Program-made: the position numbers and the translations under genes
Notes under the pieces: model-generated
Databases searched by the model: none
Told to the model about the DNA's origin: nothing
The model's input: the letters and a program-made list of their open reading frames with translations, nothing else
In this document: in pieces, positions 10,005 to 62,332 of the stretch
Position numbering within the stretch: the stretch's first letter is position 1
Layout of the letters: every line of letters starts with the position of its first letter
Origin: an uncultured Bacilli bacterium
GTDB taxonomy: Bacteria; Bacillota_I; Bacilli_A; RF39; UBA660
Assembly: GCA_934098505.1 (NCBI GenBank)
Contig: CAKOOR010000002.1
Coordinates: 83,279 to 147,278 of the forward strand
Reading direction: 5' to 3'
DNA length: 64,000 nt

Positions 10005-10036
10005 GGGAGTGGTGGGTGGGAAGTAATAATAATTTT
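10005..10036 (+). repeat. G-rich dispersed repeat copy A (GGGAGTGGTGGGTGGGAAGTAATAATAATT)
   Basis: One of four ~30-bp near-identical copies in the window. A TATACT -10-like hexamer lies ~50 bp downstream. Confidence 0.7.
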
Positions 10037-10062
10037 ATAAGCCCTAAAAAAAGAATATAAAT

Positions 10063-10974
10063 TTAAATCTTATACTCTTCAATAGTTACCCCTTGGTAAT
10101 AATACTCCAAAATATCTTTATAATTAGAACCTTCTTTAGCCATAGCATTCGCACCATATTGACTCATACCAACACCATGACCATAACCTTTTGTCGTAAA
10201 AATAATATTACCATTTTCCTCAGTAATTGAAAAATCAGTAGATCGAAGACCGAATAATTTACGAATTTCAATACCAGTAAAAGTCTTTTCATTAATAGAT
10301 ATAGTTTCTACACGATTAGAATAGTCATTTGTAATTTTTTTTATATTAAGACGAGTACAATCAATATTTAAAGTAGCGCAAAACTCACTTTTAGATATTT
10401 TTTTAGTCACAAGAAACTTAGTAGTATTTTCATTATCCATAGTAGGCATTATGGTATTTAGGTAAGGTAAGTCTTCATTAAATACACTTAAAGACGTAGT
10501 TGTATAACCGTTACTCATCGCATAAAAGTAGGACTTTATTAACTGATTATCAAAAGTCATTACTTGATTTTTAGTAAGATTAACAGCCTGTTTTATTTTA
10601 TTTAAATATGTATAATAATTCTCTTGCCATTTACTTTGCAATTCTTCCAAAGTACTGTAAGCCTGATCACCAGTCGTCACATAACCCCGAGTATTTTCTT
10701 CATAAAGGGCAAAAGTTCTGCTAGCAACCGCTTGAGATTTTAAAGCTTCGATATCAAAAAGAGCTGGAACTTCTGCGCCAACTACACTTACTAAATACTC
10801 TTCTAAAGGTATTTGCTTTTTTTCATTATTTATTAATAAATCAATATAGATTTCTTGCTTTTTTGAAATTTCATTAGGATTACTTTGATTAGTAGGAGAT
10901 ATCTGCTTAAATAATATAAAAACTGTAATAGGTAAAAGAATTGCGATAATGCTAAGTAAGATTTTATTCTTCAT
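10063..10974 (-). CDS. spoIID: SpoIID/LytB domain protein (stage II sporulation protein D)
   Basis: GYGHGVGMSQYGANAMA is the SpoIID signature. N-terminal TM. Confidence 0.8.
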   Translation of the reverse strand: MKNKILLSIIAILLPITVFILFKQISPTNQSNPNEISKKQEIYIDLLINNEKKQIPLEEYLVSVVGAEVPALFDIEALKSQAVASRTFALYEENTRGYVTTGDQAYSTLEELQSKWQENYYTYLNKIKQAVNLTKNQVMTFDNQLIKSYFYAMSNGYTTTSLSVFNEDLPYLNTIMPTMDNENTTKFLVTKKISKSEFCATLNIDCTRLNIKKITNDYSNRVETISINEKTFTGIEIRKLFGLRSTDFSITEENGNIIFTTKGYGHGVGMSQYGANAMAKEGSNYKDILEYYYQGVTIEEYKI

Positions 10975-11015
10975 AGATTCTCCTTAAATAACGCCTTTTT
11001 AGAAATAAAGGTGTT

Positions 11016-11216
11016 TTAAGACATAAAATCTGTTATAAAATTGGTTATTAAATAACTAGTAGCAATACCAAAGATGATAACTAACATTCTGGCTTCAATA
11101 GGTTTATTCCTTTTCATAAACTTATCAAAATTGATACCACTTAGGGCAACCATACTTAAAAGAAGATTAATTGCATATAACAGAGTTTTATAATTCATTA
11201 TATGATCCTTCTTCAT
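11016..11216 (-). CDS. small hydrophobic protein (uncertain)
   Basis: 66-aa ORF with two hydrophobic segments. It overlaps the rpiB 3' end by 29 nt and may be spurious. Confidence 0.25.
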   Translation of the reverse strand: MKKDHIMNYKTLLYAINLLLSMVALSGINFDKFMKRNKPIEARMLVIIFGIATSYLITNFITDFMS

Positions 11217-11637
11217 AACTTATGATTTTATTGATTCTTCTTACATGACGTTCTTCATTACTTGGTAAAGTATCCAAAAAAGTTTTTATAATTTCTAAAG
11301 CGACGTTTTTTTCTAGTGAGGCCGGAATAGCAATTACATTAGCATGATTATGAATTCTAGCGCTTTTAGCATCATCTAAATTATTAATTCGTGCGCATCT
11401 TATCCCTTTTACCTTATTAGCAGCGATGGATATACCGATGCCAGTACCACAAATTAATATACCTAAGTCTTTTGCTTTATCCATTTTAGTGCAAATATCA
11501 AAGGCAAAGTCTGGATAGTCATCTTCACTAGAGTTAGGAAGAGAAGAACTTATTATTTCATAAGTATTTTCTAAATTTTCTATTAAATGTTTTTTTAATT
11601 CACACCCGCGATGATCGCAAGCAATATATATTTTCAT
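11188..11637 (-). CDS. rpiB: ribose-5-phosphate isomerase B
   Basis: MKIYIACDHRGCELK...GILICGTGIGISIAANKVKGIRCA, RpiB/LacAB family. Confidence 0.85.
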   Translation of the reverse strand: MKIYIACDHRGCELKKHLIENLENTYEIISSSLPNSSEDDYPDFAFDICTKMDKAKDLGILICGTGIGISIAANKVKGIRCARINNLDDAKSARIHNHANVIAIPASLEKNVALEIIKTFLDTLPSNEERHVRRINKIISYEEGSYNEL

Positions 11638-11666
11638 ATTTTTTCTTCTTTCTTTTTTTATATTTT

Positions 11667-12596
11667 TTATTTAAATATATCTTTAATCAACTTATGGTGA
11701 TTTAACAAACTTAATAATTGGAACTCCTGGTAACTTGGGGCAATTGATATATCTTTTAAACTAGGACCATCACTGGTCATCACTATATCTATTTGTAAAT
11801 ATTTATTATCAGGAATAGTATTTTTAATGCGATTAACTAATCTTAAAGTTCGTGGCCATTTCGGAATAGTAAGCCAGAGAAGGGGAGATTTTGTTAAAGG
11901 ATGTTCCTCATAGATATTTTTGGTTAAGTCATAAAATGGGGAGTCAATAAGACCCGTATCTAAATTTATAGAAGCAATAATTTGGTTATTAGCAGTAACT
12001 TCATAATCTTCTTTACTAGTTACTAAATAGGAAAAAATGATATCGTCTTTAAAAGTTATAAAACGAATAAATGATAAATTGTTAGGATTTAATCTATCTA
12101 ATATTTCGTCTTGTTTAATAGCACTTTCTAAAATAGTCATTTTACTTAAATATAAATCATTATAAACATTAGTATAATTTTTTAAATCAATTTTAATTTT
12201 TTTTGTGTCATTTTTTACTTTCAAATCATATTTAGCATATATATAATCTTTATTTTGAATAAAATCATAAAAGTCAGTAATATTATCGCCATTAAGTTCT
12301 AACCATTTGTAATTAAGAAAGGGATAAAATTTTTTATTAAATTTATGGCGAGAGTAAATAATTTCTTTTAAATTAGAATTATTATACATTTTTATTAACT
12401 TTTGATTATATTTATTAGTAAGTAAATTAGTTTTTTCTAGGTCAGTCATTTTATAACATTCAAACAATTGATATTCAAAAAGACTGATATGATGCTTATA
12501 ATGAGATCGAAGATAATCATTAATTATAGTAATGGTTTTGATATTGGTACGACTTGATAATACTTTTGCTACTTTATATATATTTTGATGTGTCAT
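11667..12596 (-). CDS. hypothetical protein
   Basis: 309-aa ORF. No P-loop or other motif recognised. Confidence 0.4.
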   Translation of the reverse strand: MTHQNIYKVAKVLSSRTNIKTITIINDYLRSHYKHHISLFEYQLFECYKMTDLEKTNLLTNKYNQKLIKMYNNSNLKEIIYSRHKFNKKFYPFLNYKWLELNGDNITDFYDFIQNKDYIYAKYDLKVKNDTKKIKIDLKNYTNVYNDLYLSKMTILESAIKQDEILDRLNPNNLSFIRFITFKDDIIFSYLVTSKEDYEVTANNQIIASINLDTGLIDSPFYDLTKNIYEEHPLTKSPLLWLTIPKWPRTLRLVNRIKNTIPDNKYLQIDIVMTSDGPSLKDISIAPSYQEFQLLSLLNHHKLIKDIFK

Positions 12597-12613
12597 TTAA
12601 TCAACTCCATCTT

Positions 12614-12650
12614 TATTATAGCAAAAAAACTGCAATTATGCAGTTTTTGT
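12614..12650 (-). terminator. rho-independent terminator of rpmE
   Basis: The hairpin ctgcaattatgcag is flanked by A7/T5 runs and overlaps the rpmE stop. Confidence 0.6.
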
Positions 12651-12879
12651 TTCGTCGTGATTAAAGCCGTATTTACGGTTGAATTTTTCTACTGAGCCAG
12701 TCTTCTTAGCACGAGCTTGTGAACCTGTATAGAATGGGTGGCAAGCACTACAAACATCACATTGGATACTGTCTTTAGTAGATTTTACTGTAAATGTATT
12801 TCCGCAAGCACAATGTACTTCTACTTCGTGCATTTCTGGATGAATTCCCTTTTTCATGATACTCTCCTTCCGCCATGTT
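12636..12879 (-). CDS. rpmE: 50S ribosomal protein L31 (Zn-binding type A)
   Basis: [19 protein letters not shown]...[13 protein letters not shown]. The RBS GGAGG precedes ATG 12879. The ORF-track start 12887 is an upstream extension. Confidence 0.85.
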
Positions 12880-13065
12880 ATATTCATAACATAGAAATTT
12901 GTTTGTCCTATGTATTATATCATAAGATTTTAGTTTTGCAATTATTAATAAGTTTATTTTTCCTGATTTTCAATAATTTTTTAATATTTAAATTAAATGA
13001 GCATTTACTATTTTCCATAAACTTAATGGTTATTAAAACATTTTATATTCTAAATAGCAAAAGTT

Positions 13066-13590
13066 TTATTTGATTTTTATTTTAAGATTGGCTAAGATTT
13101 TTCCAACTAAAAATGATATTTTATCACTATTTTTAGTAGCTATTGATTTACAGATAGCCTTACCACCTACGGTAAAACTAGAAATGAAAGCTGTAAGTAA
13201 AACGGATATAATGCTTAAATTAATATTGGTTGAGTTACTAACTGATATTGCTAAGACAGCGCCAATAGAACCACTGATAATTCCACAAATATCGCCAATA
13301 ACATCATTACATATACTAGAAATTTTACTAGAATTTTTAAGTAAGCCGATAGTTTCTTTACCACCTTTTATTTTTTGAGAAGCAATTGACAAGAAAGTCT
13401 TTTCTTTACTCGTTAAAACTGCTACACCTATCATATCGAAGATAATGCCTATTACAATTATTAAAATTAATATTATAAATAAAAAGATACTATTCAATGA
13501 GTTTGATATAATATTAGAGATAATACTAAATAAGCATGATAGGATAAAAGTTAATAAAAAAACTTTATATATCCAGGCTTTATTATTCAT
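13066..13590 (-). CDS. hypothetical integral membrane protein
   Basis: The AGGAGG RBS precedes MNNKAWIYK. Four or more hydrophobic helices. Confidence 0.5.
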   Translation of the reverse strand: MNNKAWIYKVFLLTFILSCLFSIISNIISNSLNSIFLFIILILIIVIGIIFDMIGVAVLTSKEKTFLSIASQKIKGGKETIGLLKNSSKISSICNDVIGDICGIISGSIGAVLAISVSNSTNINLSIISVLLTAFISSFTVGGKAICKSIATKNSDKISFLVGKILANLKIKIK

Positions 13591-13640
13591 AATTCCTCCT
13601 ATATAAAGTAATATTCTAATTTTTGTATGGTATATCAAAA

Positions 13641-14079
13641 GTTAATTTTACGGCTTGAGGTCGAGTTGAGTTTCTCTAAATATCTTCCACTTGATTACTC
13701 ATTGGCACTTTCGTCTTTAGGATATTTAATTAATATTTAATTCATTAATTACTCGATTGCCACTTAGTCCGCACTTCAATACTCTTAATATAGACAGTCT
13801 AGAGGTTTTCCCTGACATAAGTAACTATACTTATTCGCTTTTGCAAGCATTATTTCAACTTATAGTATTCCTAATACTCACGCACGACATACGTAACTTT
13901 GAAATGACGTAATGAAAGGATGTGGGTTATATGCCATTATAACTTTCCTTAGATTTTAAATCTTATATTCACCCTAACTTGGGCCGATAAAGCAAATATA
14001 AGAAGTGTCGGTAATGTAATTGATGGATTTTTAGCCCCATCTTCATATAGTGTTATGACTAGAATAATGCACCACACAT
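13641..14079 (-). ncRNA. candidate structured leader/ncRNA (~430 nt, ORF-free, GC-richer than surroundings) transcribed from consensus promoter
   Basis: No ORF on either strand. Local GC is elevated. It contains GGGUGAAU and GAUGGGGC segments faintly reminiscent of a c-di-AMP (ydaO) riboswitch. Identity unresolved. Confidence 0.3.
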
Positions 14080-14086
14080 AGCCGAG

Positions 14087-14115
14087 ATTATAACACAAGA
14101 TATTTCGTTTGTCAA
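14087..14115 (-). promoter_or_regulatory. consensus sigma-A promoter (TTGACA-17-TGtTATAAT) reading leftward
   Basis: Minus strand: TTGACA (14115-14110), a 17-bp spacer, then the extended -10 TGTTATAAT (14095-14087). All three elements are perfect matches. Confidence 0.7.
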
Positions 14116-14212
14116 ATTTTGTTTTCTTAGAGTGTAAACAAGAGCGATTTTGACACTTTTTTTGAATTTTATTATAATCTTCTTTTAATTATATGTCTTT
14201 TTAATAAAAATA

Positions 14213-14689
14213 TTATTTGTCAATTAATTTACTTACTAAATTTAACATTTTACTATTATTGTGAACAAATTTATTTGGTTTAAATTTTTTTACCTTTGTT
14301 AAAGCTTCAGCTAATCCTTCAACATCTTGTAAACCAATTATGTATCCTAGTGAATTAAACTTAGCAATGATTTGGGTTTGATGATCATTGATATGCTCTC
14401 CATACTTAGCAAGTCTGGGGATTGCTATTACTTTTTTATTTTTTTCCAGAGCAGAGATAATGTTACCAACACCACCATGGGTAATAATCAAGTCGGCCTT
14501 GTCCATTAAGAAATTAAATTCATCTTGAGGTATTAAATCAAATATTTCCATATTTTGTGAACTATACTTAGTAAAACCAGCTTGAACTATTACTTTATCT
14601 TTTATTAAACCTTGTTTTATTAATTGGTCAATCTTTTCTAGAAGACGGACAAAGGTTTTATCTTGAGTTCCTAAAGTTACTAAAATCAT
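14213..14689 (-). CDS. glycosyltransferase family 28 C-terminal domain protein (Alg13-like, EpsF/Cps14G-type)
   Basis: MILVTLGTQ...ITHGGVGNIISAL. AAGGA RBS. Start trimmed to M13. Confidence 0.65.
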   Translation of the reverse strand: MILVTLGTQDKTFVRLLEKIDQLIKQGLIKDKVIVQAGFTKYSSQNMEIFDLIPQDEFNFLMDKADLIITHGGVGNIISALEKNKKVIAIPRLAKYGEHINDHQTQIIAKFNSLGYIIGLQDVEGLAEALTKVKKFKPNKFVHNNSKMLNLVSKLIDK

Positions 14690-14705
14690 AAGAAATCCTT
14701 TCTTT

Positions 14706-15194
14706 TTAATAAATCCACCCACCATAAATGGCGTTGGGATAAACTTCTAACATGCTTTCCCATTGAACAATAAAATAGTCGGCAAATTTATATATCAACC
14801 GCCCAGCACGAGTAGGGGTAGTACTGTTGGCAATAGTTTCGATAAAAATAACTTTTTTACGGAATAATTTAGCTAAGCAACACATAGGTCCAACATTATG
14901 GGAACCTGTTGTTACAACAACATCCGGTCTTATTTTAATAATTAAATGTAGCGAAATAAAACAATTTAAAAGGAGTTTAAAAGGGTAAACCAACTTAGCT
15001 TTAAAATTAGTATAAGTACCGCTAATTATATAATGAATTCGATTAGGATATTTATTAGCTAGATCAAGGTTATTTTTAGTTTTTTCGGTAACAATTGTAT
15101 AATCATATTTTTTGAATAAGGGGGCAAGCTGCATTAGTTCACTTAAATGACCACCAGTACTAGCAATAAACATTACTTTTTTCTTTGTTTTCAC
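14706..15194 (-). CDS. Alg14-like oligosaccharide biosynthesis membrane protein (EpsE/Cps14F-type partner of Alg13-like GT)
   Basis: The MFIASTGGHLSELMQL motif. Adjacent to the Alg13-like gene. Confidence 0.6.
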   Translation of the reverse strand: MKTKKKVMFIASTGGHLSELMQLAPLFKKYDYTIVTEKTKNNLDLANKYPNRIHYIISGTYTNFKAKLVYPFKLLLNCFISLHLIIKIRPDVVVTTGSHNVGPMCCLAKLFRKKVIFIETIANSTTPTRAGRLIYKFADYFIVQWESMLEVYPNAIYGGWIY

Positions 15195-15343
15195 GTATAA
15201 TCACCTTAAAGCTATTATACTATAAAAGATTCGTTATTAGAAAAAAAGATTTGGAATATTAGAAAATTAAAAGAAAAAAGCTTTACATAAAAGTGAAATT
15301 TTAATTTAATGACAAATATCTAATATTTGAATATATAAACATA

Positions 15344-15940
15344 TTAGTTTTCAATTTTCCAAGTTGAAATAATATTATTAAATAATTTATTAGCAATCTT
15401 TTTATGGTCTTCTTGATTTAAAGTATAATTTTGAGAAGATAATCTTTGTAAAATACTAGATGTATTAATAAAATCTATTTTATATTTACGAGTTAAATCA
15501 TTTAAAAGATAGTTAGATGTTAAGTTAATAGGGCTTATATAGATAATTTGTTTAGAGTTATACTTTCTTAAAAGAATAAATAAGTTTTCTAAATTAGTAT
15601 AAATATTAATTATATTTTCTTTTTCATGAATAAGCTCAAAATCTCCTAAATAAATGATTATAACATTAGAAGAATTTAACTTTTCTTGAATATCATTATA
15701 ATTACTTTTTATTTTATCGACAACATTTTCTATTTCCAAATTTTCTTTATGATAGGTATTAAAAGTTGTAGGTAATAATTTTTCTAGGTCTTTCTGTAAA
15801 AATGGACTAAAATTTTCTTGAATAGTCGTAGTGTCATCATAGATAACAGTTATCTTTATTTCTTGATGATTGTTAGCATTAAAAATAAGGTATGTTAAGA
15901 TGATTGCCCCTAAAGACAAAAAGAATAATTTTACTTTCAT
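15344..15940 (-). CDS. hypothetical secreted/membrane-anchored protein
   Basis: N-terminal signal/TM MKVKLFFLSLGAIILTYLIF. Confidence 0.4.
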   Translation of the reverse strand: MKVKLFFLSLGAIILTYLIFNANNHQEIKITVIYDDTTTIQENFSPFLQKDLEKLLPTTFNTYHKENLEIENVVDKIKSNYNDIQEKLNSSNVIIIYLGDFELIHEKENIINIYTNLENLFILLRKYNSKQIIYISPINLTSNYLLNDLTRKYKIDFINTSSILQRLSSQNYTLNQEDHKKIANKLFNNIISTWKIEN

Positions 15941-15964
15941 AAGACCTCACTTACTTAGTATAAT

Positions 15965-17215
15965 TTATTCTTCTATTCTTATTTTAGCACCTACCTTAGA
16001 TAGTTTTGTTTTAATATTTTCGTAGCCTCGCAATATATGGTCAGCTTGGTTGATGGTAGTTTGACCTTCGGCGATAAGTCCTGCCAAGACTAAAGAAGCT
16101 CCAGCGCGTAAGTCGCTTGCTGTTACTTCACAGCCTATTAAAGAAGATGGACCCGTTATGAAAGCTTTATTATTCGTATTAGCAATATTGGCACCCATTT
16201 TATTTAAATATTCTATATGACCCATTCGATTTTCGTAAATTGTTTCTGTAAAAGTTGATATGCCATTTGCTTGAGTGAGAAGGGTTTGCATAGTTTGACC
16301 TAAGTCAGTTACAAAGCCAGGATAAACTTGCGAGGTTATATTGATAGGTTTTAAATCAGTTTGTTTGGAAATTATAATTGAACTTTCTTCTAAGATATAA
16401 TTTATATTCATATTTTTTAAAGTATCTAACAAACTTTCTAAGTGTTTGGGTTCAATTTTATCAATAACCAAATTATCACCAGCAAGGGCGCCCGCAATTA
16501 TATATGTCCCAGCTTCTATGCGATCAGGAATAGTATATATATTGCCTTTATTTAACTTTTTGACGCCGGTTATAGTAATAGTATCAGTGCCTGCACCTTT
16601 AATTTTAGCTCCCATACTTTTCAAAAAATCAGCGACATTAACGATTTCCGGTTCCCTAGCAGCATTAAAAATTCTAGTTTGGCCATTAGCTTTTACAGCA
16701 GCCAGCATAATATTAATTGTGGCACCAACGGAAGGAAAATCAAAAGTAATATCAGTACCCGTTAATTCTTTAGCATCAATAATATACTTATCGCCTTCAA
16801 TTGTAACTGTAGCTCCCAATTTTTCAAAACCTTTAATATGATAATCAATTGGTCGTTTACCGATTTTACAACCACCAGGAAAATACATTTCTACATGATG
16901 ATATTTAGATAATAAAGAGCCCATAAAATAATAAGAAGCTCTTAATTTTTTGGCTAATGCTTCTTCAATTACTTGATTTTTAACATTGCTAGTATCAATA
17001 CTTAGAAGATTATTTTCATATTTATAATCAGCATTTAAAAGCTTTAGAATTTCCAGTAAAGCTTTGGTATCTGTTATATCAGGAACATTGTCAATTATTA
17101 CATCATCATCACAAAGAATAGCTGCTGGTATTAAAGCGACTACACTGTTTTTAGCACCACTTATTTCAATGGTACCACTTAATTTATTGGGTCCTTCGAT
17201 TATTAATTTGGTCAT
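15965..17215 (-). CDS. murA: UDP-N-acetylglucosamine 1-carboxyvinyltransferase
   Basis: MTKLIIEGPNKLSGTIEISGAKNSVVALIPAAIL and full-length EPSP-synthase-fold similarity. Confidence 0.9.
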   Translation of the reverse strand: MTKLIIEGPNKLSGTIEISGAKNSVVALIPAAILCDDDVIIDNVPDITDTKALLEILKLLNADYKYENNLLSIDTSNVKNQVIEEALAKKLRASYYFMGSLLSKYHHVEMYFPGGCKIGKRPIDYHIKGFEKLGATVTIEGDKYIIDAKELTGTDITFDFPSVGATINIMLAAVKANGQTRIFNAAREPEIVNVADFLKSMGAKIKGAGTDTITITGVKKLNKGNIYTIPDRIEAGTYIIAGALAGDNLVIDKIEPKHLESLLDTLKNMNINYILEESSIIISKQTDLKPINITSQVYPGFVTDLGQTMQTLLTQANGISTFTETIYENRMGHIEYLNKMGANIANTNNKAFITGPSSLIGCEVTASDLRAGASLVLAGLIAEGQTTINQADHILRGYENIKTKLSKVGAKIRIEE

Positions 17216-17391
17216 ATATAATACACCCCATCTAACTATAATTAACTATATCTAATTTACTACATTAAGTCAAACAAAAAAACATCTATAAAACTATATT
17301 ATAGAAATTTTTCTATTATTCTTAATTTTAGTATTTATTAAACTTAATTTGATTTATTGACATTTTACCTAAACTCTAATTACTAATAAAT

Positions 17392-20277: not shown

Positions 20278-20288
20278 ATTTATTCCTC

Positions 20289-32417: not shown

Positions 32418-32450
32418 TGATTATTATTACTTCCCAACCCACCCACCCTT
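32418..32450 (-). repeat. G-rich dispersed repeat copy B, abutting rpmH -35
   Basis: The minus strand reads AAGGGTGGGTGGGTTGGGAAGTAATAATAATCA. It ends 8 bp upstream of the rpmH TTGACA. Confidence 0.7.
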
Positions 32451-32520
32451 AAAGGGATGTTTTTAAAGAATAGTTTATGATTTTAGTTTTATGTTTTAGA
32501 AATTTTATATTTTGATAAAT

Positions 32521-33056
32521 TGTGGATAAGTGTGGATAACTTTTCTTTTATTATTATTATTATATATATATTCATCATCATAATACTGTGGATATGTGGA
32601 TAACTTTTAAAAAAATCCCGAAAGTACGCCAATAAAATGACCGTTTTGAGGTGTTGATAACTTTTGAGTTATCAACAGTTGGGGTGTGGATAACTGTGTT
32701 TTGAGGTGTTGATAACTCCAAAAATAGTCAAAAATCGACCAAAATTTACCTAAAAAAAGTGTCAAGTTTTAGTGTCAAGTAAGAAGTTATCCACAGTTTT
32801 GCCTAAAAATAGTGCATTTATGGGAAGTTATCCACAGGCGTGAGCCCTTATAAACACTGGGCTCAAATGAGTTATCCACATTATCAACAGGTACTACCAC
32901 CCAAGTTATCCACATGTTGATAACAAAAAAAGCCCTAAACTGTGGATAACTCAAAAATTTCCCAGACTTCTGGGAAAAAAACTGTGGATAAACTGTTGAT
33001 AAGTTGTTGATAACCTGTGGACAAAACTGTGGATAACTTTACTAGGGGTGTTGATA
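32521..33056. other. oriC: cluster of >=20 DnaA boxes (TTATCCACA/TTATCAACA) with AT-rich (TTA)n/(TA)n tract
   Basis: Perfect or one-mismatch boxes, in both orientations, at 32521, 32531, 32587, 32595, 32652, 32669, 32686, 32707, 32787, 32828, 32872, 32881, 32906, 32915, 32941, 32973, 32984, 32995, 33007, 33018 and 33048. An AT tract lies at 32546-32582. Confidence 0.9.
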
Positions 33057-42722: not shown

Positions 42723-42840
42723 TCATAAAAAAGTTATAAACAGTTTTGCTTGATAAAATATTTTTTATATTGAAGTAGTTATTTATAAAGGAAGGTTAAA
42801 ATTTTTGTTGTATCTTTGGAATTTTTATGGTAATATTAAG

Positions 42841-42919
42841 AGGTGCAATAAGTACATAGGAACTTGGTCAGGGTAGGAATACAGCAGCCATAACTATCAA
42901 TGCTTATGTGCACTTTTTT
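42841..42919 (+). ncRNA. ffs: small SRP RNA (4.5S/ffs)
   Basis: UUGGUCAGGGUAGGAAUACAGCAGCC contains the domain-IV GGUCAGG ... AGCAGCC motifs around a GUA[GGAA]UAC tetraloop stem. The 5'/3' ends pair (gtgcaataag/cttatgtgcac). A T7 terminator and an extended -10 TGgTAATAT lie at 42828-42836. Confidence 0.65.
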
Positions 42920-42932
42920 TATGGAGTTTAAT

Positions 42933-54809: not shown

Positions 54810-54812
54810 AAA

Positions 54813-56249
54813 ATGGCAAAGAATTTAATTGGGGCAAGTTGGTGTGATGCGAGTAACGGGGAAGTAATTGAGATTACTAACCCTGCTACTAATGCACTAA
54901 TCGATACAGTACCAAAAAGTACAAAAGAAGACTGCGACAAGGCAGTTGAAGCGGCTTTTGAGGCACAAAAAGAATGGGCTAAAGTGCCTTTACATGAAAG
55001 AGCAAGTCGTTTAATGAAGTTTGTTTCTTTAGTAGAAAGAGATAAAGATAGTTTAGCAAAATTATTATGCGAAGAAACTGGTAAACCAATTAGTGAAGCA
55101 ATAGGAGAAATTGCCAATGTTGCTATTGGGATTCCAGCATTCTGTGAAAGAGCAAAACATGAATATGGAAAAGTAATTCCTTATGGTCAAGAAAAAGGTA
55201 ATGAGGCTACTTTACAATATACAGTACAGGCTCCTTTAGGAGTAGTTGTTGCGGTAATTCCGTTTAATTTCCCTAGTGACTTATTCTGTCAAAAAGTTCC
55301 TGCAGCTTTATTAATGGGAAATAGTGTTATTTTAAAACCAAGTGCTCATAATCCTTTAACTTTAACTAAGTATGTGGAGTTATTAATTGAGGCTGGTATT
55401 CCTGGGGGAGCAATTAATTTAATCAATGGCGCTGGTGGCGAGGCTGTTCAAAATTTAGCTGAGAATTCTAAAGTGGCGTTAGTAAGTCTTACTGGTTCTA
55501 CTTTGGCTGGAGCGGAAACAATGGCTAAATGTGCTAAAAATATTACTCATGTTATGTTAGAATTGGGAGGAAATGATGCTTTCATTCTTCATAAAGATGG
55601 TGATGTTGATTTAGCAGTTAAAGAAACTATCTGGGGTCGTCTATATAATACTGGTCAAGTTTGCTGTGCTTCTAAGCGTTTCTTAGTTCATAAAGATGTT
55701 TTAGACGAATTTGTTAATAAATTAACAGAAACTTTCAAAGGCATTAAGGTTTGTATGCCTAGTAATCCTAATGCTAAAATTGGTTGTTTAATTAGTGAAG
55801 ATGCTGCTAAAAAGGTAGAAGAACAAGTTAATTCTACTGTTGAATTGGGCGCTAAGGTTGTTTATGGTGGTCGTCGTAAAGGGGCTTTCTATGAACCAAC
55901 TATTTTAACTGATGTTACCCGTGATATGCCTGTTGCTAAAGATATGGAGATCTTTGGACCTGTTGTTTCTATTATTAGTTATGATACTATTGAAGAAGCA
56001 ATCGAGATTGCTAATCAATCAAGTTTTGGTTTATGTGGATGTATTATTTCTAAAGATCAAAAAGTATGTCAAAAAGTTGCTAATGAACTTGAATGCGGTG
56101 GGGTAATTATTAATGGTGCTTCTTTCTTCCGTTCATTTGAAATGCCATTTGGTGGCTGGAAACATTCTGGTTATGGTAATGAAGGCGTTGCTAGTACTCT
56201 TCATGAAATGAGTAGAACTAAAACTGTTATTTTAAAAAATATACTTTAA
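54813..56249 (+). CDS. NAD(P)-dependent aldehyde dehydrogenase
   Basis: ELGGNDAF, the catalytic Cys in GQVCCASKR, 478 aa. Confidence 0.85.
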   Translation: MAKNLIGASWCDASNGEVIEITNPATNALIDTVPKSTKEDCDKAVEAAFEAQKEWAKVPLHERASRLMKFVSLVERDKDSLAKLLCEETGKPISEAIGEIANVAIGIPAFCERAKHEYGKVIPYGQEKGNEATLQYTVQAPLGVVVAVIPFNFPSDLFCQKVPAALLMGNSVILKPSAHNPLTLTKYVELLIEAGIPGGAINLINGAGGEAVQNLAENSKVALVSLTGSTLAGAETMAKCAKNITHVMLELGGNDAFILHKDGDVDLAVKETIWGRLYNTGQVCCASKRFLVHKDVLDEFVNKLTETFKGIKVCMPSNPNAKIGCLISEDAAKKVEEQVNSTVELGAKVVYGGRRKGAFYEPTILTDVTRDMPVAKDMEIFGPVVSIISYDTIEEAIEIANQSSFGLCGCIISKDQKVCQKVANELECGGVIINGASFFRSFEMPFGGWKHSGYGNEGVASTLHEMSRTKTVILKNIL

Positions 56250-56271
56250 AAATATGAAGATATTATTGTTT

Positions 56272-56298
56272 GTTAAGACGATAATGTCTTTTTTATTT
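56272..56298 (+). terminator. rho-independent terminator after ALDH
   Basis: aagacgataatgtctt followed by TTTTTT. Confidence 0.6.
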
Positions 56299-56506
56299 TG
56301 CTTTAATATTTACAAAAATGTCAAATTATCGTCAAATTTTATAAAAAAATGTAATTTTTAGTAAAAATTTTAAAAAAAAAGAAGGAAATTAGACTTCACT
56401 TACCAATATATATAATTAGGAGGGTAAATAATATCCTTCTTAAGAAAAGGAGGTGAATTTATGAGAAATTTTGCCAAAAACAATATGGAAAAGGAAGTGA
56501 TGATCA

Positions 56507-57442
56507 ATGAAAAGCAAGAAAGAAATAGAAAGAACTTTAAAAGAAAATAAAGGCGCCGATTTTGTTTTACCTATGACTTGGGATGTAATGTTCGAGCAAA
56601 TGTTCATTTCTGAAGAAGCCATGCCTTTACTTGAATGTATTATTTCAATATTTGGCAATGTCGATATTAAAGATGTTAAGGGTAAAGTTAGGTTACTACC
56701 AAATGAATTAAAACAAACATCGGCAAAAGATACGAGAAGTAAAAGTGATATAATTGCTGATTATTTTAAAGATGAAAAAAATATTGATAAGTATATTGTG
56801 GAAATGAATTCATCAAAAAAGATGCCTTGGCGTAATGTTTTCTATGCTTATATAGTAGCAGGCGGTGGTATTTCTATTAATGATGATAAATATGTTAAGG
56901 CTTACGACACTATCTTAATTGATTTTAACACATTTGCTGATGATGAAAATGATTTGGTAGAAATGATTACTATGCGTTACAAAACTGGTAAAATCTTTGA
57001 TGATAGTACTAAAATATTCGAAGTAAATATGGCAAAAGCAAAAGATACGAGTTATAATTATGTCGATAAACAAGAAGAACAAGTAGCCATAATTAGTAGA
57101 ATGTTTATGACTACCAGTTCACTTGAATTGGATAAGGAGTCAGATAAACTTATGAGTAAAAAAGATACGGAAAAATTAGTTAGTCGTGCCAAGGAATTAT
57201 CGAGTGATGATGGTTATATTAGACTTTTTGATAAAGAAGAAAATTATAAGGAGCTGATTCGTAATACCGAGTTAGCAGAAGCTCGTGAGGAAGGAAAGTT
57301 AGAAGGCATGAAATTAGGCTCTAAAGAAGCAAAAATAGATGTTGCTAAAAGTCTTATTAAAATAGGATTAACCAATGAGCAAATTGTCGAAGCCACAAAG
57401 ATTTCAATTGAAGAAATCAATATATTAAGAAAAGAAGTTTAA
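56507..57442 (+). CDS. Rpn/YhgA-like recombination-promoting nuclease / putative transposase (Transposase_31, PD-(D/E)XK)
   Basis: C-terminal AEAREEGKLEGMKLG...IKIGLTNEQIVEATKISIEEINIL, the signature tail of this family. 311 aa. Confidence 0.6.
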   Translation: MKSKKEIERTLKENKGADFVLPMTWDVMFEQMFISEEAMPLLECIISIFGNVDIKDVKGKVRLLPNELKQTSAKDTRSKSDIIADYFKDEKNIDKYIVEMNSSKKMPWRNVFYAYIVAGGGISINDDKYVKAYDTILIDFNTFADDENDLVEMITMRYKTGKIFDDSTKIFEVNMAKAKDTSYNYVDKQEEQVAIISRMFMTTSSLELDKESDKLMSKKDTEKLVSRAKELSSDDGYIRLFDKEENYKELIRNTELAEAREEGKLEGMKLGSKEAKIDVAKSLIKIGLTNEQIVEATKISIEEINILRKEV

Positions 57443-57589
57443 AGTAATAAATATTATTATAGAAAATATTTTAATTGAAAAGTGTAGTCATGTGGCTATG
57501 CTTTTTATAAATATTTATAATATGTACTAAAAAATAAAAAAATATAGTGCTAGTCATTATATCTAAAGCGATTATGACATCTATATTTT

Positions 57590-57770
57590 TAGTTTAGGCG
57601 TATGGCCTGGTAGGTTATCTGTTTCCAATCTAAATTAGATTACGATTAATCGTTGCCGCTTTTATAAATGTCCGTAGGCATTTATCCTAAGTTCATAGCA
57701 TTTAGCAGGAATCTGGCCGAACCCCGTCAAGGAAAAAGAAACAGACGGCGAGGAAGCCCTAAAATTATAT
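57590..57770. ncRNA. candidate structured ncRNA (GC-rich ~180-nt island without ORF; 6S-like size)
   Basis: Its GC content is well above the flanking intergenic DNA. The 5' CUGUUUCC and 3' GGAAAAAGAAACAG segments could pair. No motif confirms an identity. Confidence 0.25.
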
Positions 57771-57849
57771 TGATAACTGGTATCTTTAATTTTAAAGTAG
57801 ATAATTGTTTTTTATTGAAAATAATTGGTAAAAAAATTAAATAATTATA

Positions 57850-58281
57850 TTACACAATTTTAATTAAATCCAAATCTGTTTGTTTATTTTCTACAAGAAC
57901 ATTAAGATTGCTAATTATCCAATTGGGAGATCTTAATTCGTCTTTCATTTTTAGTATTTCTTCATAGCTAAACCATTTTACATCTAATATTTCTGACTTA
58001 TTTATATTTATATTTTCTTCTAATAATTTTGTTGAAAAGAGTATGCCTATCCAAATACCGTTTTCTAAAATTTTGTTGCAAACTTTTAGAACCCCAGTTA
58101 GTTCAACTTTACATCCTGTTTCTTCAAAAATTTCCCTTTTAGCTCCATCAAAAATACTTTCCTTTGGTTCGAGATGACCTGCGGGAATATTCCATTTTCC
58201 ACGACATATTTCTTTAGCTTCTTGTACTAGTAAAAATTTGCCATCTTTTTCTATAAAACCGCCAACAATAATTGAGTTCAT
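57850..58281 (-). CDS. NUDIX hydrolase
   Basis: The Nudix box GHLEPKESIFDGAKREIFEETG. Confidence 0.8.
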   Translation of the reverse strand: MNSIIVGGFIEKDGKFLLVQEAKEICRGKWNIPAGHLEPKESIFDGAKREIFEETGCKVELTGVLKVCNKILENGIWIGILFSTKLLEENININKSEILDVKWFSYEEILKMKDELRSPNWIISNLNVLVENKQTDLDLIKIV

Positions 58282-58284
58282 ATA

Positions 58285-59514
58285 TTAATTTCCTTTCCTA
58301 ATTGTGTGTTTAATTTTCTTTAAAATATTAAACAAGGTATTAACAGGACTTAAAGATAATTCATAAGCACCAAGAAGTTCTTCGACATAGCCGCCGAAGC
58401 CTTTTTTAAATTCGTAAACACCACGGTCTTTACCATTAGGATTAAATACATCTTGAATACCAAAGAAGTTATATCTCTTATAATTATGGTCTGCAGCATA
58501 TTTAATTATTTCCCATTGTAGGCGATATTGACCACAAAACTGCATATACTCGGCATAAGAACCACTAAATAAATAAATGATTTCATCACCATATAATATG
58601 AACATAGCAGCTGATAAAGGAATAATTTCGCCTTTTTCTTGCCTTAAATTTTTCGCCTCTTGTATCTTTTTATTATTATTTTCAATATCTTTTTTCATGA
58701 CTTCTTTTTTCTTTAAGTTAGAATTAGAATCAGATAACTCTTCTAATTTAGAAGTCATTTCTTTATTAGAATCTTCTAATTTTTGAATATAATTCTTTAG
58801 ATTAATTTCACATATTTTAAAAGTTACATCATCTTTAAAACAATCATACATTTCTTCATAATATTTTAAAGATTTATCGGAAAATGATCTACGATCACAA
58901 GTATCACTGGTAATAGTTTTAAATTCTTTTAATTCATCTTTAGATAGTGTTCTAATATTTAAATCATATTTAGTTAAAGTTTTATTAATATTATTACGAG
59001 TACTACTACGAAAATCATTAAATAATTCTTTACTAGTTTTACCATTAATATCAAGACAATAAGTCCATTTAACTTGGCTACTTTGGGAATCTTTATAACC
59101 TAAAGTGTGTAGATAATCTATAATATCTCGGTTATCAAATTCATCAGTAATTTCCGCTTCCATATTACGAGAAACAGCAGGTATATAAGGGTCAATTATT
59201 AATTTTAAGCCATTTCTTTCTTTTAGAAAGTTCTTAACACCATCAGTCATAAATCTAAGTAATTCTTTATTATGATAATCAAGAATAAAGCCTTTATAAG
59301 CCTCATATGTTATTTTACCTAAGAATTTTTGTGGGGTTTCGGCGATAAGACTGGCTGCAATAACTTTGCTATTTTCTTTAACTCCTACTAAATAAACCTT
59401 TGTTCCATCACATTCTAATTTCTTTTTCATCATTACAGTTTGAAAGAAATTTTTATTATTTTGTGTATCGACAAAATTTTGAAATTCCTGTTCTGTTAGT
59501 TCTGTAAATTTCAT
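58285..59514 (-). CDS. FemAB-family peptidoglycan aminoacyltransferase
   Basis: The N-terminus MKFTELTEQEFQNFVD...FFQTV parallels S. aureus FemA (MKFTNLTAKEFGAF...FTQTV). A central coiled-coil insertion is present. Confidence 0.65.
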   Translation of the reverse strand: MKFTELTEQEFQNFVDTQNNKNFFQTVMMKKKLECDGTKVYLVGVKENSKVIAASLIAETPQKFLGKITYEAYKGFILDYHNKELLRFMTDGVKNFLKERNGLKLIIDPYIPAVSRNMEAEITDEFDNRDIIDYLHTLGYKDSQSSQVKWTYCLDINGKTSKELFNDFRSSTRNNINKTLTKYDLNIRTLSKDELKEFKTITSDTCDRRSFSDKSLKYYEEMYDCFKDDVTFKICEINLKNYIQKLEDSNKEMTSKLEELSDSNSNLKKKEVMKKDIENNNKKIQEAKNLRQEKGEIIPLSAAMFILYGDEIIYLFSGSYAEYMQFCGQYRLQWEIIKYAADHNYKRYNFFGIQDVFNPNGKDRGVYEFKKGFGGYVEELLGAYELSLSPVNTLFNILKKIKHTIRKGN

Positions 59515-59597
59515 TGTATCACCCATTTATAAGTATAAACTAAAATTATAATATTTAATAGTTAAAAAGAAATAAATCTAATAAAAAGATACTTTTT

Positions 59598-59630
59598 AGG
59601 GAGTGGCGGGTGGGAAGAAATAATAAGATT
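59598..59630 (+). repeat. G-rich dispersed repeat copy C, overlapping the -35 region upstream of the AbrB/SpoVT-family gene
   Basis: AGGGAGTGGCGGGTGGGAAGAAATAATAAGATT. An extended -10 TGTTATAAA lies at 59647-59655. Confidence 0.7.
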
Positions 59631-59693
59631 ATAAATAAAAAAATAATGTTATAAATTTTAAAAAAAAGACAATAATAAACTTAGAGGTAAGAT

Positions 59694-60161
59694 ATGAACG
59701 GACAAATAAAAAGAATTGATGAATTAGGACGCATTGTAATTCCTAAAGATATAAGAAAAAGGCTTTCCATTAAGACTAATGATACTCTGGAAATAGGGAT
59801 GGATGGCGATAAAATAGTTTTAAACAAAAGAATAGCTATCAAAGAGTATAATGATTATGTTAAGACTTTACTAACTATTTTAACTAATTATAGTGGGATT
59901 AAGTTTTTAGCGACTAATCGGGAAGATATTATTTTTAATAATACGGATATAGTTGGTTTTGAGGTTAAGAAGTATATTAATATGTCTTTATATGAAATGG
60001 ATAAGGTTAAGGATGAGATATGTAGTGGTTGTGATATAAGACCGGTTATTATTGATAGTAATGTGGAAGGGATTATTTTAGTTATAAATAGTGAATGTAA
60101 TAAAGAAATTGGGAAAATTATTAATATTTTAGTTACTTCTAAACTTGATATTTCATGTTAA
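59694..60161 (+). CDS. AbrB/SpoVT-family transcriptional regulator (SpoVT-like: swapped-hairpin N-domain + C-terminal domain)
   Basis: IKRIDELGRIVIPKDIRKRLSIKTNDTLEI is the AbrB-N domain. 155 aa with a C-domain resembling SpoVT. It is upstream of metG, like abrB in B. subtilis. Confidence 0.6.
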   Translation: MNGQIKRIDELGRIVIPKDIRKRLSIKTNDTLEIGMDGDKIVLNKRIAIKEYNDYVKTLLTILTNYSGIKFLATNREDIIFNNTDIVGFEVKKYINMSLYEMDKVKDEICSGCDIRPVIIDSNVEGIILVINSECNKEIGKIINILVTSKLDISC

Positions 60162-60194
60162 GAATTATATACTCGTATTATGACAGGAGATTTT

Positions 60195-61196
60195 ATGGAT
60201 AATACGGGTTTTATTTTGACTTTTTTAAGGGATTTAGAGTGGGAAATGAAGAAAATTGGTTTAAGGTCGGCTATTTCTTTAAAGATTTTAAAAAAGGATA
60301 TGTTTTTAGAAGATGGTAATACTTTAGGGGTAATGTTTGTTTCGGGCATACCTACTTATATATTAACATCTCAAGGGCGTATTAAGATTTTAGATGAGGC
60401 TTTTCGAGGGAAGAATATTGATTTAGATAAGAAGAATAATTATATTAATATGTTCTTTCAAAGATATGATTGTAGGCTTGCTCTTAATTTAAAGGGCTCA
60501 AGTATTTATAGTATAAAAAGGGTTCCTATGGTTGATAGGGAGTTAGATGATATTAGCTTAGTTAGAAATTTTGATAAGAAAGAAGAAAGTAGAAAAAGGT
60601 TATCTTTAGTAGCGGGTATTAATTTTAATGAGCAGGAAAGGTTAAAGATGGGATTGGAAGTTAAAAGGTTTGTAATGTATGAACTTGAATTTTTAAGGGG
60701 AACATATAATTCTCATGATGGTTTTTTAGGTATTGATAGTTATTATAAATCAGGTAAATTATGTGAGGATATGGACGCTAATAAGGTTTATTTATGTGAA
60801 GATGATATAATTAATATTGGTAATTTAGTAGAAATGGCAATTGTTTATGTAGGCTTGCCTAGTACGAGTATTAGGGGTAATATAAGAGATTTTTGCTATA
60901 CTTTATTATCGGGGTTGCAGTTATATCTTGATGATTTTAATATCTTAGCAACTAAAAAAGATTTGTATAAGAGGCAACTAGATAAGTATCTGGCTTATTT
61001 TACTTTGGAGCCAAAAGAAGAAAGAGGTCTGGATTTTATTTACGATTATAATAAGACCTTCTTAAATGGAGTTGGGGTTTTAGAGATTGTTAAAGATGAC
61101 CAAGTGCTTTATGGGATTAGTGATGATGGAAATATTAAGATTGATAAGTATAATGGATTGAGTTTGGAAAGAAAATTTGGTAAGAGGTGTGATTAA
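60195..61196 (+). CDS. hypothetical protein (G-rich codon bias)
   Basis: An ACAGGAG RBS. No homologue recognised. Unusually frequent GGG/AGG codons. Confidence 0.4.
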   Translation: MDNTGFILTFLRDLEWEMKKIGLRSAISLKILKKDMFLEDGNTLGVMFVSGIPTYILTSQGRIKILDEAFRGKNIDLDKKNNYINMFFQRYDCRLALNLKGSSIYSIKRVPMVDRELDDISLVRNFDKKEESRKRLSLVAGINFNEQERLKMGLEVKRFVMYELEFLRGTYNSHDGFLGIDSYYKSGKLCEDMDANKVYLCEDDIINIGNLVEMAIVYVGLPSTSIRGNIRDFCYTLLSGLQLYLDDFNILATKKDLYKRQLDKYLAYFTLEPKEERGLDFIYDYNKTFLNGVGVLEIVKDDQVLYGISDDGNIKIDKYNGLSLERKFGKRCD

Positions 61197-61273
61197 TGGT
61201 AGCGAGAGTATTTTAGTAGACAATTTTATTGGTTGTATCAAGATATAATTAGATACACAATAGCAAAAATTTG

Positions 61274-61312
61274 AGCGAGGCTAGGTGAAATTTGGCTTCG
61301 CTCATTTTAAGT
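61274..61312 (+). terminator. rho-independent terminator
   Basis: The hairpin tgagcgaggc-N13-gcttcgctca followed by TTTT. Confidence 0.55.
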
Positions 61313-61526
61313 GTCAAAGAAAATTTATCGTAGTGCCAATTTTTGTATTTTGTAATATACAATCATATTGCAATAGTAAATTAAAAGTAACGCATTTGTA
61401 GATAACTAAATAATATTTTAGCAAAGATTAGAAAAGTTTAGTAGAAGTGCATTTAGTGTAGACTTTAAATTAATTGTATGCTATTTTAGTAGCACAAGTA
61501 GCAATTGATTATGATTATACAGCGTT

Positions 61527-62285
61527 ATGGAGGTTTTTAAAATGATGAATGATTTACTAAAATTAAAAGAAGAAATAGAAATGGCGCGTAAATATGTTCC
61601 TTTAATTTTGAGCGATGATTGTGATGCGTGTATTGTAAGTGATGAGGAAGGGAAAACTGATGAGGAAGGGAAAACGCTTTTAGAATATGCGAATATGGAA
61701 AGTACAAGTGAAATTGTTAGGCAATGTGAAGACCTTATGAAAGAAGCCGTAGTATTGTTTGGCAGAAATAATATTCCTTACGATATAATTGGGCTTACAT
61801 CATATGCGGGGGTTTTGTGTACGCCTGAACTAGTTGAACTTTTAAAAAATAAATTAGAAGTATTAGCGAATGAAGATGAATTTGCTTATTTCAATCAGAT
61901 TATACTTAATAGTATCGGTACTAATATATCTTTAAAATATGTTCCTGTAGAATTTAGTATTGGTCCTTACGAAAGTGGTATTTTTACGCGTAATAAAGAC
62001 TTTTTATGCTTAAGTGATTATTTAGGTCAAGATTATGCACCAAAGGTTAAGGAGATAACTGATATTCAAAATTTGGTTGAAAAAAGAATTTTGGGGATTG
62101 TTGATTTTGAAAAATTCAGAACGGAAATTAGAAGTTTAGATTATGAATTTGGTGTTTGGAATGATGGTGTTATTAAAGATTATGGTAATGATTATGCAAA
62201 GGCTTTGAAAAATGGGTTATTTGATACAAGACTTGAGATTATAGCGGATTTTAGACCATTGGAGTTAAAGAGAAAAATGAATTAA
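61527..62285 (+). CDS. hypothetical protein with internal 15-bp tandem duplication (DEEGKTDEEGKT)
   Basis: The ORF is intact. It carries the tandem repeat gaggaagggaaaact/gaggaagggaaaacg. Confidence 0.4.
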   Translation: MEVFKMMNDLLKLKEEIEMARKYVPLILSDDCDACIVSDEEGKTDEEGKTLLEYANMESTSEIVRQCEDLMKEAVVLFGRNNIPYDIIGLTSYAGVLCTPELVELLKNKLEVLANEDEFAYFNQIILNSIGTNISLKYVPVEFSIGPYESGIFTRNKDFLCLSDYLGQDYAPKVKEITDIQNLVEKRILGIVDFEKFRTEIRSLDYEFGVWNDGVIKDYGNDYAKALKNGLFDTRLEIIADFRPLELKRKMN

Positions 62286-62300
62286 AATATTAGCCTATCT

Positions 62301-62332
62301 ATGGAGTGGTGGGTGGGAAGTAATCAATAATT
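62301..62332 (+). repeat. G-rich dispersed repeat copy D upstream of metG T-box promoter
   Basis: ATGGAGTGGTGGGTGGGAAGTAATCAATAATT. TGcTATACT lies at 62375-62383. Confidence 0.7.

Follow-up and report, generated by a model that had tools for sequence, protein, structure and literature searches.

Short interspersed repeats such as REP/BIME, BOX, RUP, Correia/NIME-dRS3 and the STAR elements of Staphylococcus aureus are tens of base pairs long, multi-copy, intergenic and lineage specific, and they are often found beside terminators. REP sequences are preferred targets of insertion sequences (IS), dRS3 is a preferred target of Neisseria prophages, and STAR elements form G/C-rich islands in an AT-rich genome, with their units arranged in interspersed tandem arrays. 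Chi sites are 5 to 8 nt long, occur hundreds of times, including inside genes, and are co-oriented with replication. Here we describe a G-rich dispersed repeat that is present in four copies (A to D) in 64,000 nt of DNA from an uncultured Bacilli bacterium (GenBank assembly GCA_934098505.1, contig CAKOOR010000002.1, positions 83,279 to 147,278), hereafter called the window. The sequence comparisons are best read as showing a family of short intergenic repeats that is interspersed, young and restricted to one lineage, and we class the repeat as a putative insertion hotspot of that type.

The sequence beside gonococcal pilE reads ..GTTAGAATA-GGGTGGGTTGGGTGGGG-AATTTTC and contains a guanine quadruplex (G4), inside which a small RNA (sRNA) starts that is transcribed away from the variable pilE gene (PMC3547852, PMC10094033). 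Rpn proteins, the genes or remnants of which lie beside some copies of the present repeat, are toxic anti-phage endonucleases (PMC10400941). A target specificity has been proposed for Rpn/YhgA-like nucleases, but whether they have a true target site is an open question (Kingston et al. 2017, PMC5350276); for rpnC, the same locus was inferred to have received insertions twice independently (PMC5350276).

A first-pass annotation of the window had reported four near-identical copies, and these constitute a genuine, non-random and previously undescribed short dispersed repeat. Searching the window with a 27-nt consensus (up to 3 mismatches) recovered copies A (10006-10032, +), C (59600-59626, +) and D (62303-62329, +), with no matches in 100 shuffles used as a control. 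Copy B carries one extra T (GGGTGGGTGGGTTGGGAAGTAATAATAA). The annotation had assigned it correctly to the minus strand, while its start (given as 32418) and its distance to TTGACA, the rpmH -35 box (given as 8 bp) are corrected here to 32421-32448 and 11 nt. A 59-nt profile built from all copies found no fifth member in the window. The copies are all intergenic, at a density of about 1 per 16 kb (4 in 64 kb), and in a window of ~27% overall GC (range, 23-34%) they are the sole intergenic G-rich islands. G4Hunter scores of at least 1.5 were obtained only for A, B, C and one coding site (4241-4264, +), with D scoring 1.4; that coding site, at which a P-type ATPase gene encodes ..IPPTISPLK.. on the minus strand, bears no relation to the repeat. 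The parts of the four copies are as follows.

9985-10004 (+): AT-rich arm of copy A, CTTATAAAACATACTATTCT, with a -10-like TACTAT 3 nt 5' of the G-run
10005-10032 (+): core of copy A, GGGAGTGGTGGGTGGGAAG followed by TAATAATAA
32421-32448 (-): core of copy B, G4 motif GGGTGGGTGGGTTGGG, arm not recognizable
59581-59598 (+): arm of copy C, 6 nt shorter than the arm of other strains
59599-59626 (+): core of copy C, GGGAGTGGCGGGTGGGAAG followed by AAATAATAA, 5' half hypervariable between strains
62303-62330 (+): core of copy D, GGAGTGGTGGGTGGGAAGTAATCAATAA, preceded by a degenerate arm at 62282-62302

The core measures 28 bp and consists of an irregular G/T-rich run, then GGGAAG and WAATAATAA, with AATAATAA forming a sharp edge towards conserved core genes. 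Because conservation extends further upstream in relatives (TTTATAAAWRATACTWTTCT-GGGAGTGGNGGGTGGGAAGWAATAATAA), the unit has two parts, the 28-bp core and a 20-bp AT-rich arm (TTTATAAAWRATACTWTTCT) that is found on the 5' side in about two-thirds of the copies. Among the related loci (designated by L numbers), the arm is conserved in L099, L100, L067, L164 and the orthologues of copy C, and it is missing from its usual place in B, D and L022. TACTNT lies 3 nt 5' of the G-run in six copies, with T, A and T invariant at hexamer positions 1, 2 and 6, and a sigma-70 scan at the arm of copy A selected CTGACA-16-TACTAT (9974-10001). Folding of both strands gave z-scores of about 0 or above relative to shuffles, the exception being an AT stem in the arm of copy C. 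The arm pattern searched alone occurred at chance frequency, and comparison of solo copies revealed no extended homology. No transposase, terminal inverted repeat (TIR), hairpin or partner end was found around the repeat, phage and plasmid collections contained no significant match to it, and a literature search with its sequence strings returned nothing relevant.

Several other identities were rejected. A known RNA family was ruled out by a scan of Rfam 15, in which only the OLE, SRP and L31 leader RNAs reached the gathering score on either strand of the window and copy A appeared as noise at E ≤ 10. A small open reading frame (ORF) in the repeat was dismissed, as the LLLLPTHHSQNS reading (A, L099) lacks a start codon, is interrupted by stop codons in D and falls into another frame in B. 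A terminator of the upstream gene was likewise excluded: lemA and spoIID have their own hairpin or T-run before the repeat, the repeat has no hairpin, and L168 has the hairpin only. The two viral-contig matches that might have indicated a phage origin were a coding coincidence in the metagenome-assembled genome (MAG) of a giant virus, and the idea that solo arms are TIRs around the Rpn remnant was abandoned given the chance frequency of the arm pattern.

The window DnaA is 97% identical to that of 'Mycoplasma sp. CAG:956', a very common human-gut member of the Bacilli in which sporulation genes are present. A genome-contig scan with a loose pattern gave matches that were mostly due to chance and in high-GC genomes; six loci were usable, one from CAG:956 (L020) and five from Hadza gut Bacilli MAGs, and a metagenome scan yielded orthologues of C and D only. 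Like REP, BOX and STAR elements, the repeat is multi-copy, intergenic and lineage restricted, occurring in the window and in related gut Bacilli MAGs. Unlike REP sequences and miniature inverted-repeat transposable elements (MITEs), it has no palindrome, hairpin or TIRs and is strongly strand-asymmetric and purine/G-rich, and the interspersed tandem arrays of STAR were not seen. It resembles Chi in being G-rich and polar, in containing a Chi-like GTGGTGG and in having recombination tracts on its 5' side. However, it is 28-48 nt long, exclusively intergenic, present about once per 16 kb and of mixed orientation around oriC, copy A being opposite to B, C and D with respect to the replichores. 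It differs from integron attC and other site-specific sites in its lack of a hairpin and in the single copy per insertion, and no integrase was seen in the gene neighborhoods listed. Held against the definitions of REP/MITE elements (palindrome or TIR), Chi, an attC-like site and a promoter operator, the repeat falls outside each of them.

The repeat is gained, lost and degraded between close strains. In ten CAG:956-type strains (DnaA 97% identical), the -35/-10 region of rpmH is identical, copy B is absent and ATAATGCAAAAACATAGGAAATAAGAATAATC is found instead; in these strains, the 3' edge of the repeat is also the exact point at which a highly divergent tract comes to its end. In L126 the promoter of the metG T-box is kept and copy D is absent, and in L020, L123 and L124 copy D has decayed to GGGATTGGCGGACTGGTAG while the downstream 150 nt are nearly identical. 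In the more distant L168 (Tmk 88% identical), the lemA-tmk spacer contains a hairpin terminator only and no repeat. The presence of intact G-runs at non-orthologous sites in a 27% GC genome implies a recent, repeated origin.

Variation is concentrated in the G-run, which is 6-9 times more variable than the sequence on either side. Among eight strains, 6/19 columns of the copy C G-run are variable compared with 14/295 in the flanks (p = 5e-4), and the corresponding values for copy D are 8/19 and 15/149 (p = 1e-3). As the flanks, too, show more variation at G/C than at A/T columns (8.6% versus 3.8% for C, 20% versus 5.7% for D), AT-biased mutation explains part of this excess, but not all of it. 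The variation in copy C is confined to the 5' half of the G-run, the 3' half and AAATAATAAG being invariant. Two contigs that are otherwise 99.6% identical differ at four positions inside copy C, and variants recur across loci (GAAAGTGGTGGGT(T)GGGAAG at copy C of CAG:956 and at the priA site). Adenine mutagenesis of the type driven by diversity-generating retroelements (DGRs) was rejected as the cause, since non-A positions change too and the DGR loci have no copy.

Rpn genes or their remains adjoin the repeat at some sites, and three features of the window are relevant here.

9840-9984 (-): degraded leader of an Rpn unit, the outer end of which (..GAATTGTGTCAG) abuts the arm of copy A; collinear with other Rpn leaders
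9737-9838 (-): Rpn C-terminal remnant of 33 aa, an HTH_Rpn_C-like module
56507-57442 (+): intact Rpn-family gene without an adjacent copy, with a hairpin terminator where A, L099 and L164 have the repeat

The leader beside copy A shows collinear homology to the Rpn leaders of L099, window positions 56240-56506, L132 and L141. Copy A and L099 are collinear over ~230 nt, in the order repeat, conserved leader and Rpn-family gene, the last being reduced to the remnant in the window. The first-pass annotation had raised the possibility that the motif is part of a longer element. Copy A is indeed contiguous with an Rpn leader and remnant that have intact relatives elsewhere, but the repeat is not an integral part of the Rpn unit. 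The leader of the intact window gene also precedes Rpn genes at five other loci, where the units stop, without the repeat, at a common ..ACATTTTT boundary with ordinary terminators beyond it; the repeat is therefore a neighbor of the Rpn unit and was rejected as its integral end. A Pfam-A search with the intact window protein gave no match. Several homologues that are 76-85% identical to it carry the helix-turn-helix (HTH) domain PF27070 HTH_Rpn_C, which is also carried by a small ORF downstream of the Rpn gene in L155.

Three genomes whose Tmk proteins are 97% identical can be compared at the lemA-tmk site. In L114 the repeat stands alone, in L099 it is accompanied by an Rpn gene that is only 41% identical to all others, and in L164/L165 by one that is 79% identical to that of the window. 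Both Rpn genes point the same way, and each lies directly against the outer end of the arm. A further Tmk homologue (P0266) was discarded from this comparison because it sits in a different synteny. At the priA locus (L156-159, L162-163) the order is Rpn, arm, core and priA, with two Rpn variants. Read on the G strand, with a slash marking the junction, the sequences are CACAATTC/TTATAAAAC at copy A, CACTATTT/TTATAAAAG in L099, ACATTTTTA/TATAAAGAA in L164 and AACTAAA/TTTATAAAG at priA. The Rpn junctions thus fall within 1-2 nt of one arm position at three loci (lemA-tmk, priA and copy A). Over 58 nt, the copies that adjoin Rpn lineages of only 41% identity match each other at 93%; the copies are hence younger than the Rpn split, and the junctions do not go back to a single ancient composite. 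The repeat lies within 200 bp of three of the eight distinct Rpn loci (P = 8e-4 at the copy density of the window). The far junctions, both those of the Rpn units and that of the 252-aa gene upstream of copy D, showed no second copy of the repeat.

This arrangement is reminiscent of homing-endonuclease genes, in which a nuclease gene lies beside a specific sequence, occupied and empty alleles exist in close relatives, and different paralogues are found at one site. Occupied and empty alleles, as in a homing gene and its target, are present at lemA-tmk (L114 empty; L099 and L164 occupied) and also at the priA and spoIID sites. Classical homing, however, moves between alleles and not to new loci.

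The first-pass annotation had linked the repeat to promoters. Its positional observations were borne out: copy A lies on the strand opposite to spoIID, 30 nt past the spoIID stop codon and ~165 nt from the 33-aa Rpn C-terminal remnant, copy C lies upstream of an AbrB/MazE-fold gene, and copy D precedes the metG T-box (77.8 bits, E = 2e-17; below the Rfam gathering score of 93). The -10 hexamers that it named 33 to 58 bp downstream are also present. Exact TATAAT, TATACT or TATAAA hexamers in that distance range are found at only ~11% of positions, and their presence here follows from the location of three copies in 5' regions. A generic sigma-70 scan near the copies performed at chance level (4 found versus 4.0 expected, and 21 versus 19.2). 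At six of the nine independent sites the repeat precedes a gene and shares its orientation (rpmH, the abrB-like gene, metG, priA, a T2SSE ATPase gene and an unknown gene), and the other three are antisense between two co-directional genes (after spoIID, lemA and engB).

G4 potential had been claimed for the repeat as well. This holds for copy B, a textbook G4 motif, whereas A, C and D give only weak two-layer predictions. In a G4-aware energy model covering G4s without bulges, three-layer G4s were predicted only for B, L022 and L067 (-29 to -39 kcal/mol, compared with -29.1 for the gonococcal pilE G4). A, C, D and L099 reached -3 to -4.5 kcal/mol, and no G4 was predicted for the majority-strain variant of C, L164 or L156. 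G4Hunter scores ranged from 1.05 to 2.06 across copies and variants. As the predictions differ among orthologous variants, G4 capacity is predicted to be real in some copies but not a maintained property.

A cis-regulatory element, acting as a G4 or by binding a protein and modulating rpmH, the abrB-like gene, metG and others, is the least probable of the explanations considered and would be very surprising. It draws on the convincing promoters downstream of B (which also lies downstream of the DnaA boxes) and D, with -35 boxes 11 and 25 nt away, on the co-orientation at 6/9 sites, on the rarity by chance of exact -10 hexamers at the stated distance (~0.11 per position) and on the conservation of the 3' half of copy C in 9/9 strains. 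Convincing promoters were found at B and D only, however, and the repeat has no fixed position relative to a promoter and is not conserved at orthologous promoters. Three antisense sites face the 3' ends of convergent genes, the spacing varies, the orthologous L168 site has no repeat, and the repeat evolves faster than the promoters that it would regulate. The promoter role fails because natural strains keep identical rpmH and metG promoters without the repeat, which on this evidence is not part of the neighboring promoters. These natural 'deletion' alleles strongly suggest that removal of the repeat would leave expression unchanged. The main rival, which we consider quite unlikely, is a transcription-activated G-rich recombination initiator like the garP-G4 pair of pilE. 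The arm would be a weak promoter, the transcript would start in the G-run with the G-rich strand as non-template, and an R-loop, with or without a G4, would make the site prone to breaks and allow promoter-side DNA to be replaced with no need for a sequence-specific nuclease. Such an initiator would account for the TACTNT 3 nt before the G-run in six copies, for the (C/T)TGACA that the end of the Rpn unit adds 16 nt upstream in A and L099, and for the hypervariable 5' half of the G-run, in which the many G/A differences would be expected of an exposed C strand. The gonococcal order is identical: a -10 precedes the G4, and the variable locus lies on the side of the promoter, where the variable DNA is also found here, and the three-layer predictions for B, L022 and L067 equal that for pilE. 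G4 potential is nevertheless unconserved, being weak in A, C, D and L099 and undetected in the common C variant, L164 and L156. A -35 is missing from solo copies and present only where the Rpn unit abuts (A, L099), the arm is missing in B and D, the Rpn junctions are nucleotide-precise rather than scattered, and no silent donor cassettes were seen at the loci examined. The resemblance to pilE G4/garP appears to be one of layout only: both have a 16-nt G3-tract motif (GGGTGGGTTGGGTGGG in the gonococcus, GGGTGGGTGGGTTGGG in copy B) in an AT-rich intergenic setting, a -10-like hexamer directly 5' of the G-run on the G strand, and variable promoter-side DNA. The gonococcal element, by contrast, is single-copy and strictly conserved and serves gene conversion of pilE from silent pilS copies, while the repeat is multi-copy, rapidly gained and lost, located in a Gram-positive gut commensal and adjacent to Rpn or accessory cargo.

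The properties that are consistent across copies are positional, with the core edge facing conserved genes, the arm side variable and Rpn at the arm edge, and we therefore tentatively favor, at somewhat less than even confidence, the reading that the repeat is an insertion and recombination junction, or 'landing pad,' for Rpn cassettes and other accessory DNA. Its starting point is what is directly observed: the anatomy, the way in which copies are gained, lost and degraded among close strains, a G-run that varies more than its flanks, and Rpn junctions that recur. The repeat would be recognized and the DNA broken at the edge of the arm, the likeliest agent being an Rpn-type PD-(D/E)XK nuclease that acts through its variable C-terminal HTH module in a homing-like or type-IIS-like manner, and repair of the break would capture an Rpn cassette or other accessory DNA; AT-rich TTTATAAA-like short duplications at the far junction would fit such break and capture. 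We prefer an Rpn nuclease as the trigger because the junctions are nucleotide-precise and occur in both orientations, and because the literature leaves Rpn specificity open and reports two insertions at the rpnC locus. A further proposition, which we regard as rather doubtful, is that one lineage of Rpn/YhgA-like nucleases has its specific target in the repeat or, put differently, that the repeat is a garP-G4-like break site in multiple copies. In either case it would be a dedicated pad at which gut Bacilli capture and swap anti-phage nuclease cassettes, and the pads would lie at defined intergenic positions. A number of observations weigh against the landing pad. Unlike in a homing pair, most Rpn loci (5/8) have no repeat and many repeat sites (6/9) have no Rpn gene, and cutting of the repeat by Rpn is only putative; E. 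coli RpnA showed no sequence specificity in vitro (PMC5350276). When conditioned on both features being intergenic, the adjacency is marginal (P ~0.08). The L114 allele could be a deletion scar instead of a virgin site. The arm is inverted in L022, 25 nt beyond the core on the other side, and 27 extra nt separate it from the G-run in the priA copy. The short TTTATAAA-like repeats at the far junctions give a hint of target duplication, but their AT content is too high for them to count. The product of 56507-57442 matches TIGR01784 over the full model length (E = 1.1e-10) at 41.8 bits, below the cutoff of 52.1, and the related sequence covered amounts to ~0.4 Mb, much of it redundant and all from metagenome assemblies. 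Another explanation, which we regard as unlikely but worth weighing, is inert debris. The 28-48 bp would be the terminus that survives from a mobile element, or a footprint left by such an element or by horizontal replacement tracts that arose repeatedly. The copies would be idle and decaying under AT bias, and Rpn genes would be nearby only because both gather in permissive post-terminator intergenic slots. Presence or absence and decay between close strains, the greater variability of flank G/C columns, the intergenic-conditioned P of only ~0.08 and the ~105 nt of the L114 spacer missing from L168 are all in keeping with debris, as is the combination of one constant edge with an extent on the other side that varies between 28 nt (B, D and L022) and 48 nt (C, L067, L100 and L114). 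On the other hand, no partner end, transposase, TIR or hairpin was found, phage and plasmid collections gave no match, and nine strains share an unchanged 3' half of copy C. The junctions of two Rpn lineages at the same nucleotide, in both orientations, and the 93% identity of copies (over 58 nt) beside 41%-identical Rpn genes, which makes them younger than the Rpn split, also argue against debris.

Some further features of the Rpn loci were observed. In L099 (5480-6709, -), the lemA-tmk Rpn gene has an in-frame TGA, and its C-terminal module of ~95 aa, which is RpnS/HTH-like, is duplicated in tandem behind the gene; at other loci a separate 92-96-aa ORF follows Rpn. L151-L154 (7504-13792) contain an extra block between the aldehyde dehydrogenase gene and the window-type Rpn gene (corresponding to window 56250-56507), which comprises a 514-aa protein, a second Rpn, a DGR reverse transcriptase and bAvd. 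Just downstream of the window Rpn gene lies a GC-rich repeated segment of ~340 bp (57505-57833, +), present in two copies each in L124 and L126, one of them inverted. In relatives this segment adjoins a DGR reverse transcriptase and bAvd, and it may be a remnant of a DGR template or noncoding RNA; it had no Rfam match at E ≤ 1.

Variable DNA other than Rpn is also found around copies C and D and oriC, and two features of the window lie on either side of copy D.

61323-62274 (+): strain-variable segment with a 252-aa gene (61527-62285), ending at the degenerate arm of copy D
62389-62568 (+): metG T-box leader downstream of copy D, given as context and lying outside the repeat

In L123, 135 bp stand in place of the segment before D, and in L124 it has given way to other DNA. 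This non-Rpn cargo behaves much as the Rpn units do, which supports the landing-pad reading. In L124 the slot is occupied by an AAA_14/DUF4143 ATPase gene (3166-4374, +) belonging to the PADLOC candidate defense family PDC-S01 (E = 1e-149), and the 252-aa gene of the window could not be annotated. At its borders, the variable slot upstream of D has a palindrome, TTTTGTATTTTGCAAAATACTTTTTTG, that is repeated one to three times in tandem and then gives way to GTGCATTTAGT; TTTTGTATTTTGCAAAATACTTTTTTG is located at 61333-61375 in the window, at 1740-1830 in L122 and at 8740-8830 in L124 (flipped). Compared with window positions 57834-59369, L126 lacks nearly all of the FemAB gene, of which a short N-terminal fragment is left beside copy C. 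The Nudix gene may be lost too, although L126 has an ORF of 143 aa a little further upstream.

Around oriC, the stretch of ~100 nt that separates the cluster of DnaA boxes from the rpmH promoter (32450-32560) is very divergent from that of L177-L186, despite 97% identical DnaA, and several DnaA boxes differ (TTATCCACA versus TTATCAACA). A ComK-family gene follows dnaN in L177-L186 (~4264-4374; by synteny near window 35.9 kb). It suggests natural competence in this species, which would be relevant to cassette exchange by transformation. The window also encodes an OLE RNA (13611-14091, -; 201.9 bits), an L31 leader (12864-12894, -) and an SRP RNA (42834-42929, +), so that OLE RNA occurs in a human-gut Bacilli genome labeled 'Mycoplasma sp. 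CAG:956.' Sporulation genes are represented by spoIID in the window and by SpoIVA, SpoIIIAH and GerE in related loci.

The practical lesson is that strain-level conservation should be checked before G-rich islands near promoters of AT-rich genomes are called regulators. After the gonococcal pilE G4, the repeat would be a second example from bacteria, here in a Gram-positive gut commensal, of hypervariable DNA next to a G-run that has a -10 element at its side. Rpn/YhgA-like nucleases occur widely, and both phage defense and RecA-independent gene transfer are promoted by them; the way in which their genes move and the existence of a target site have been open questions since 2017. The repeat, where two Rpn lineages have landed at one nucleotide and an empty allele is available, offers a concrete substrate for addressing the target site biochemically. 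If the proposed target relationship is true, Rpn units would be site-specific mobile defense genes of gut Bacilli.

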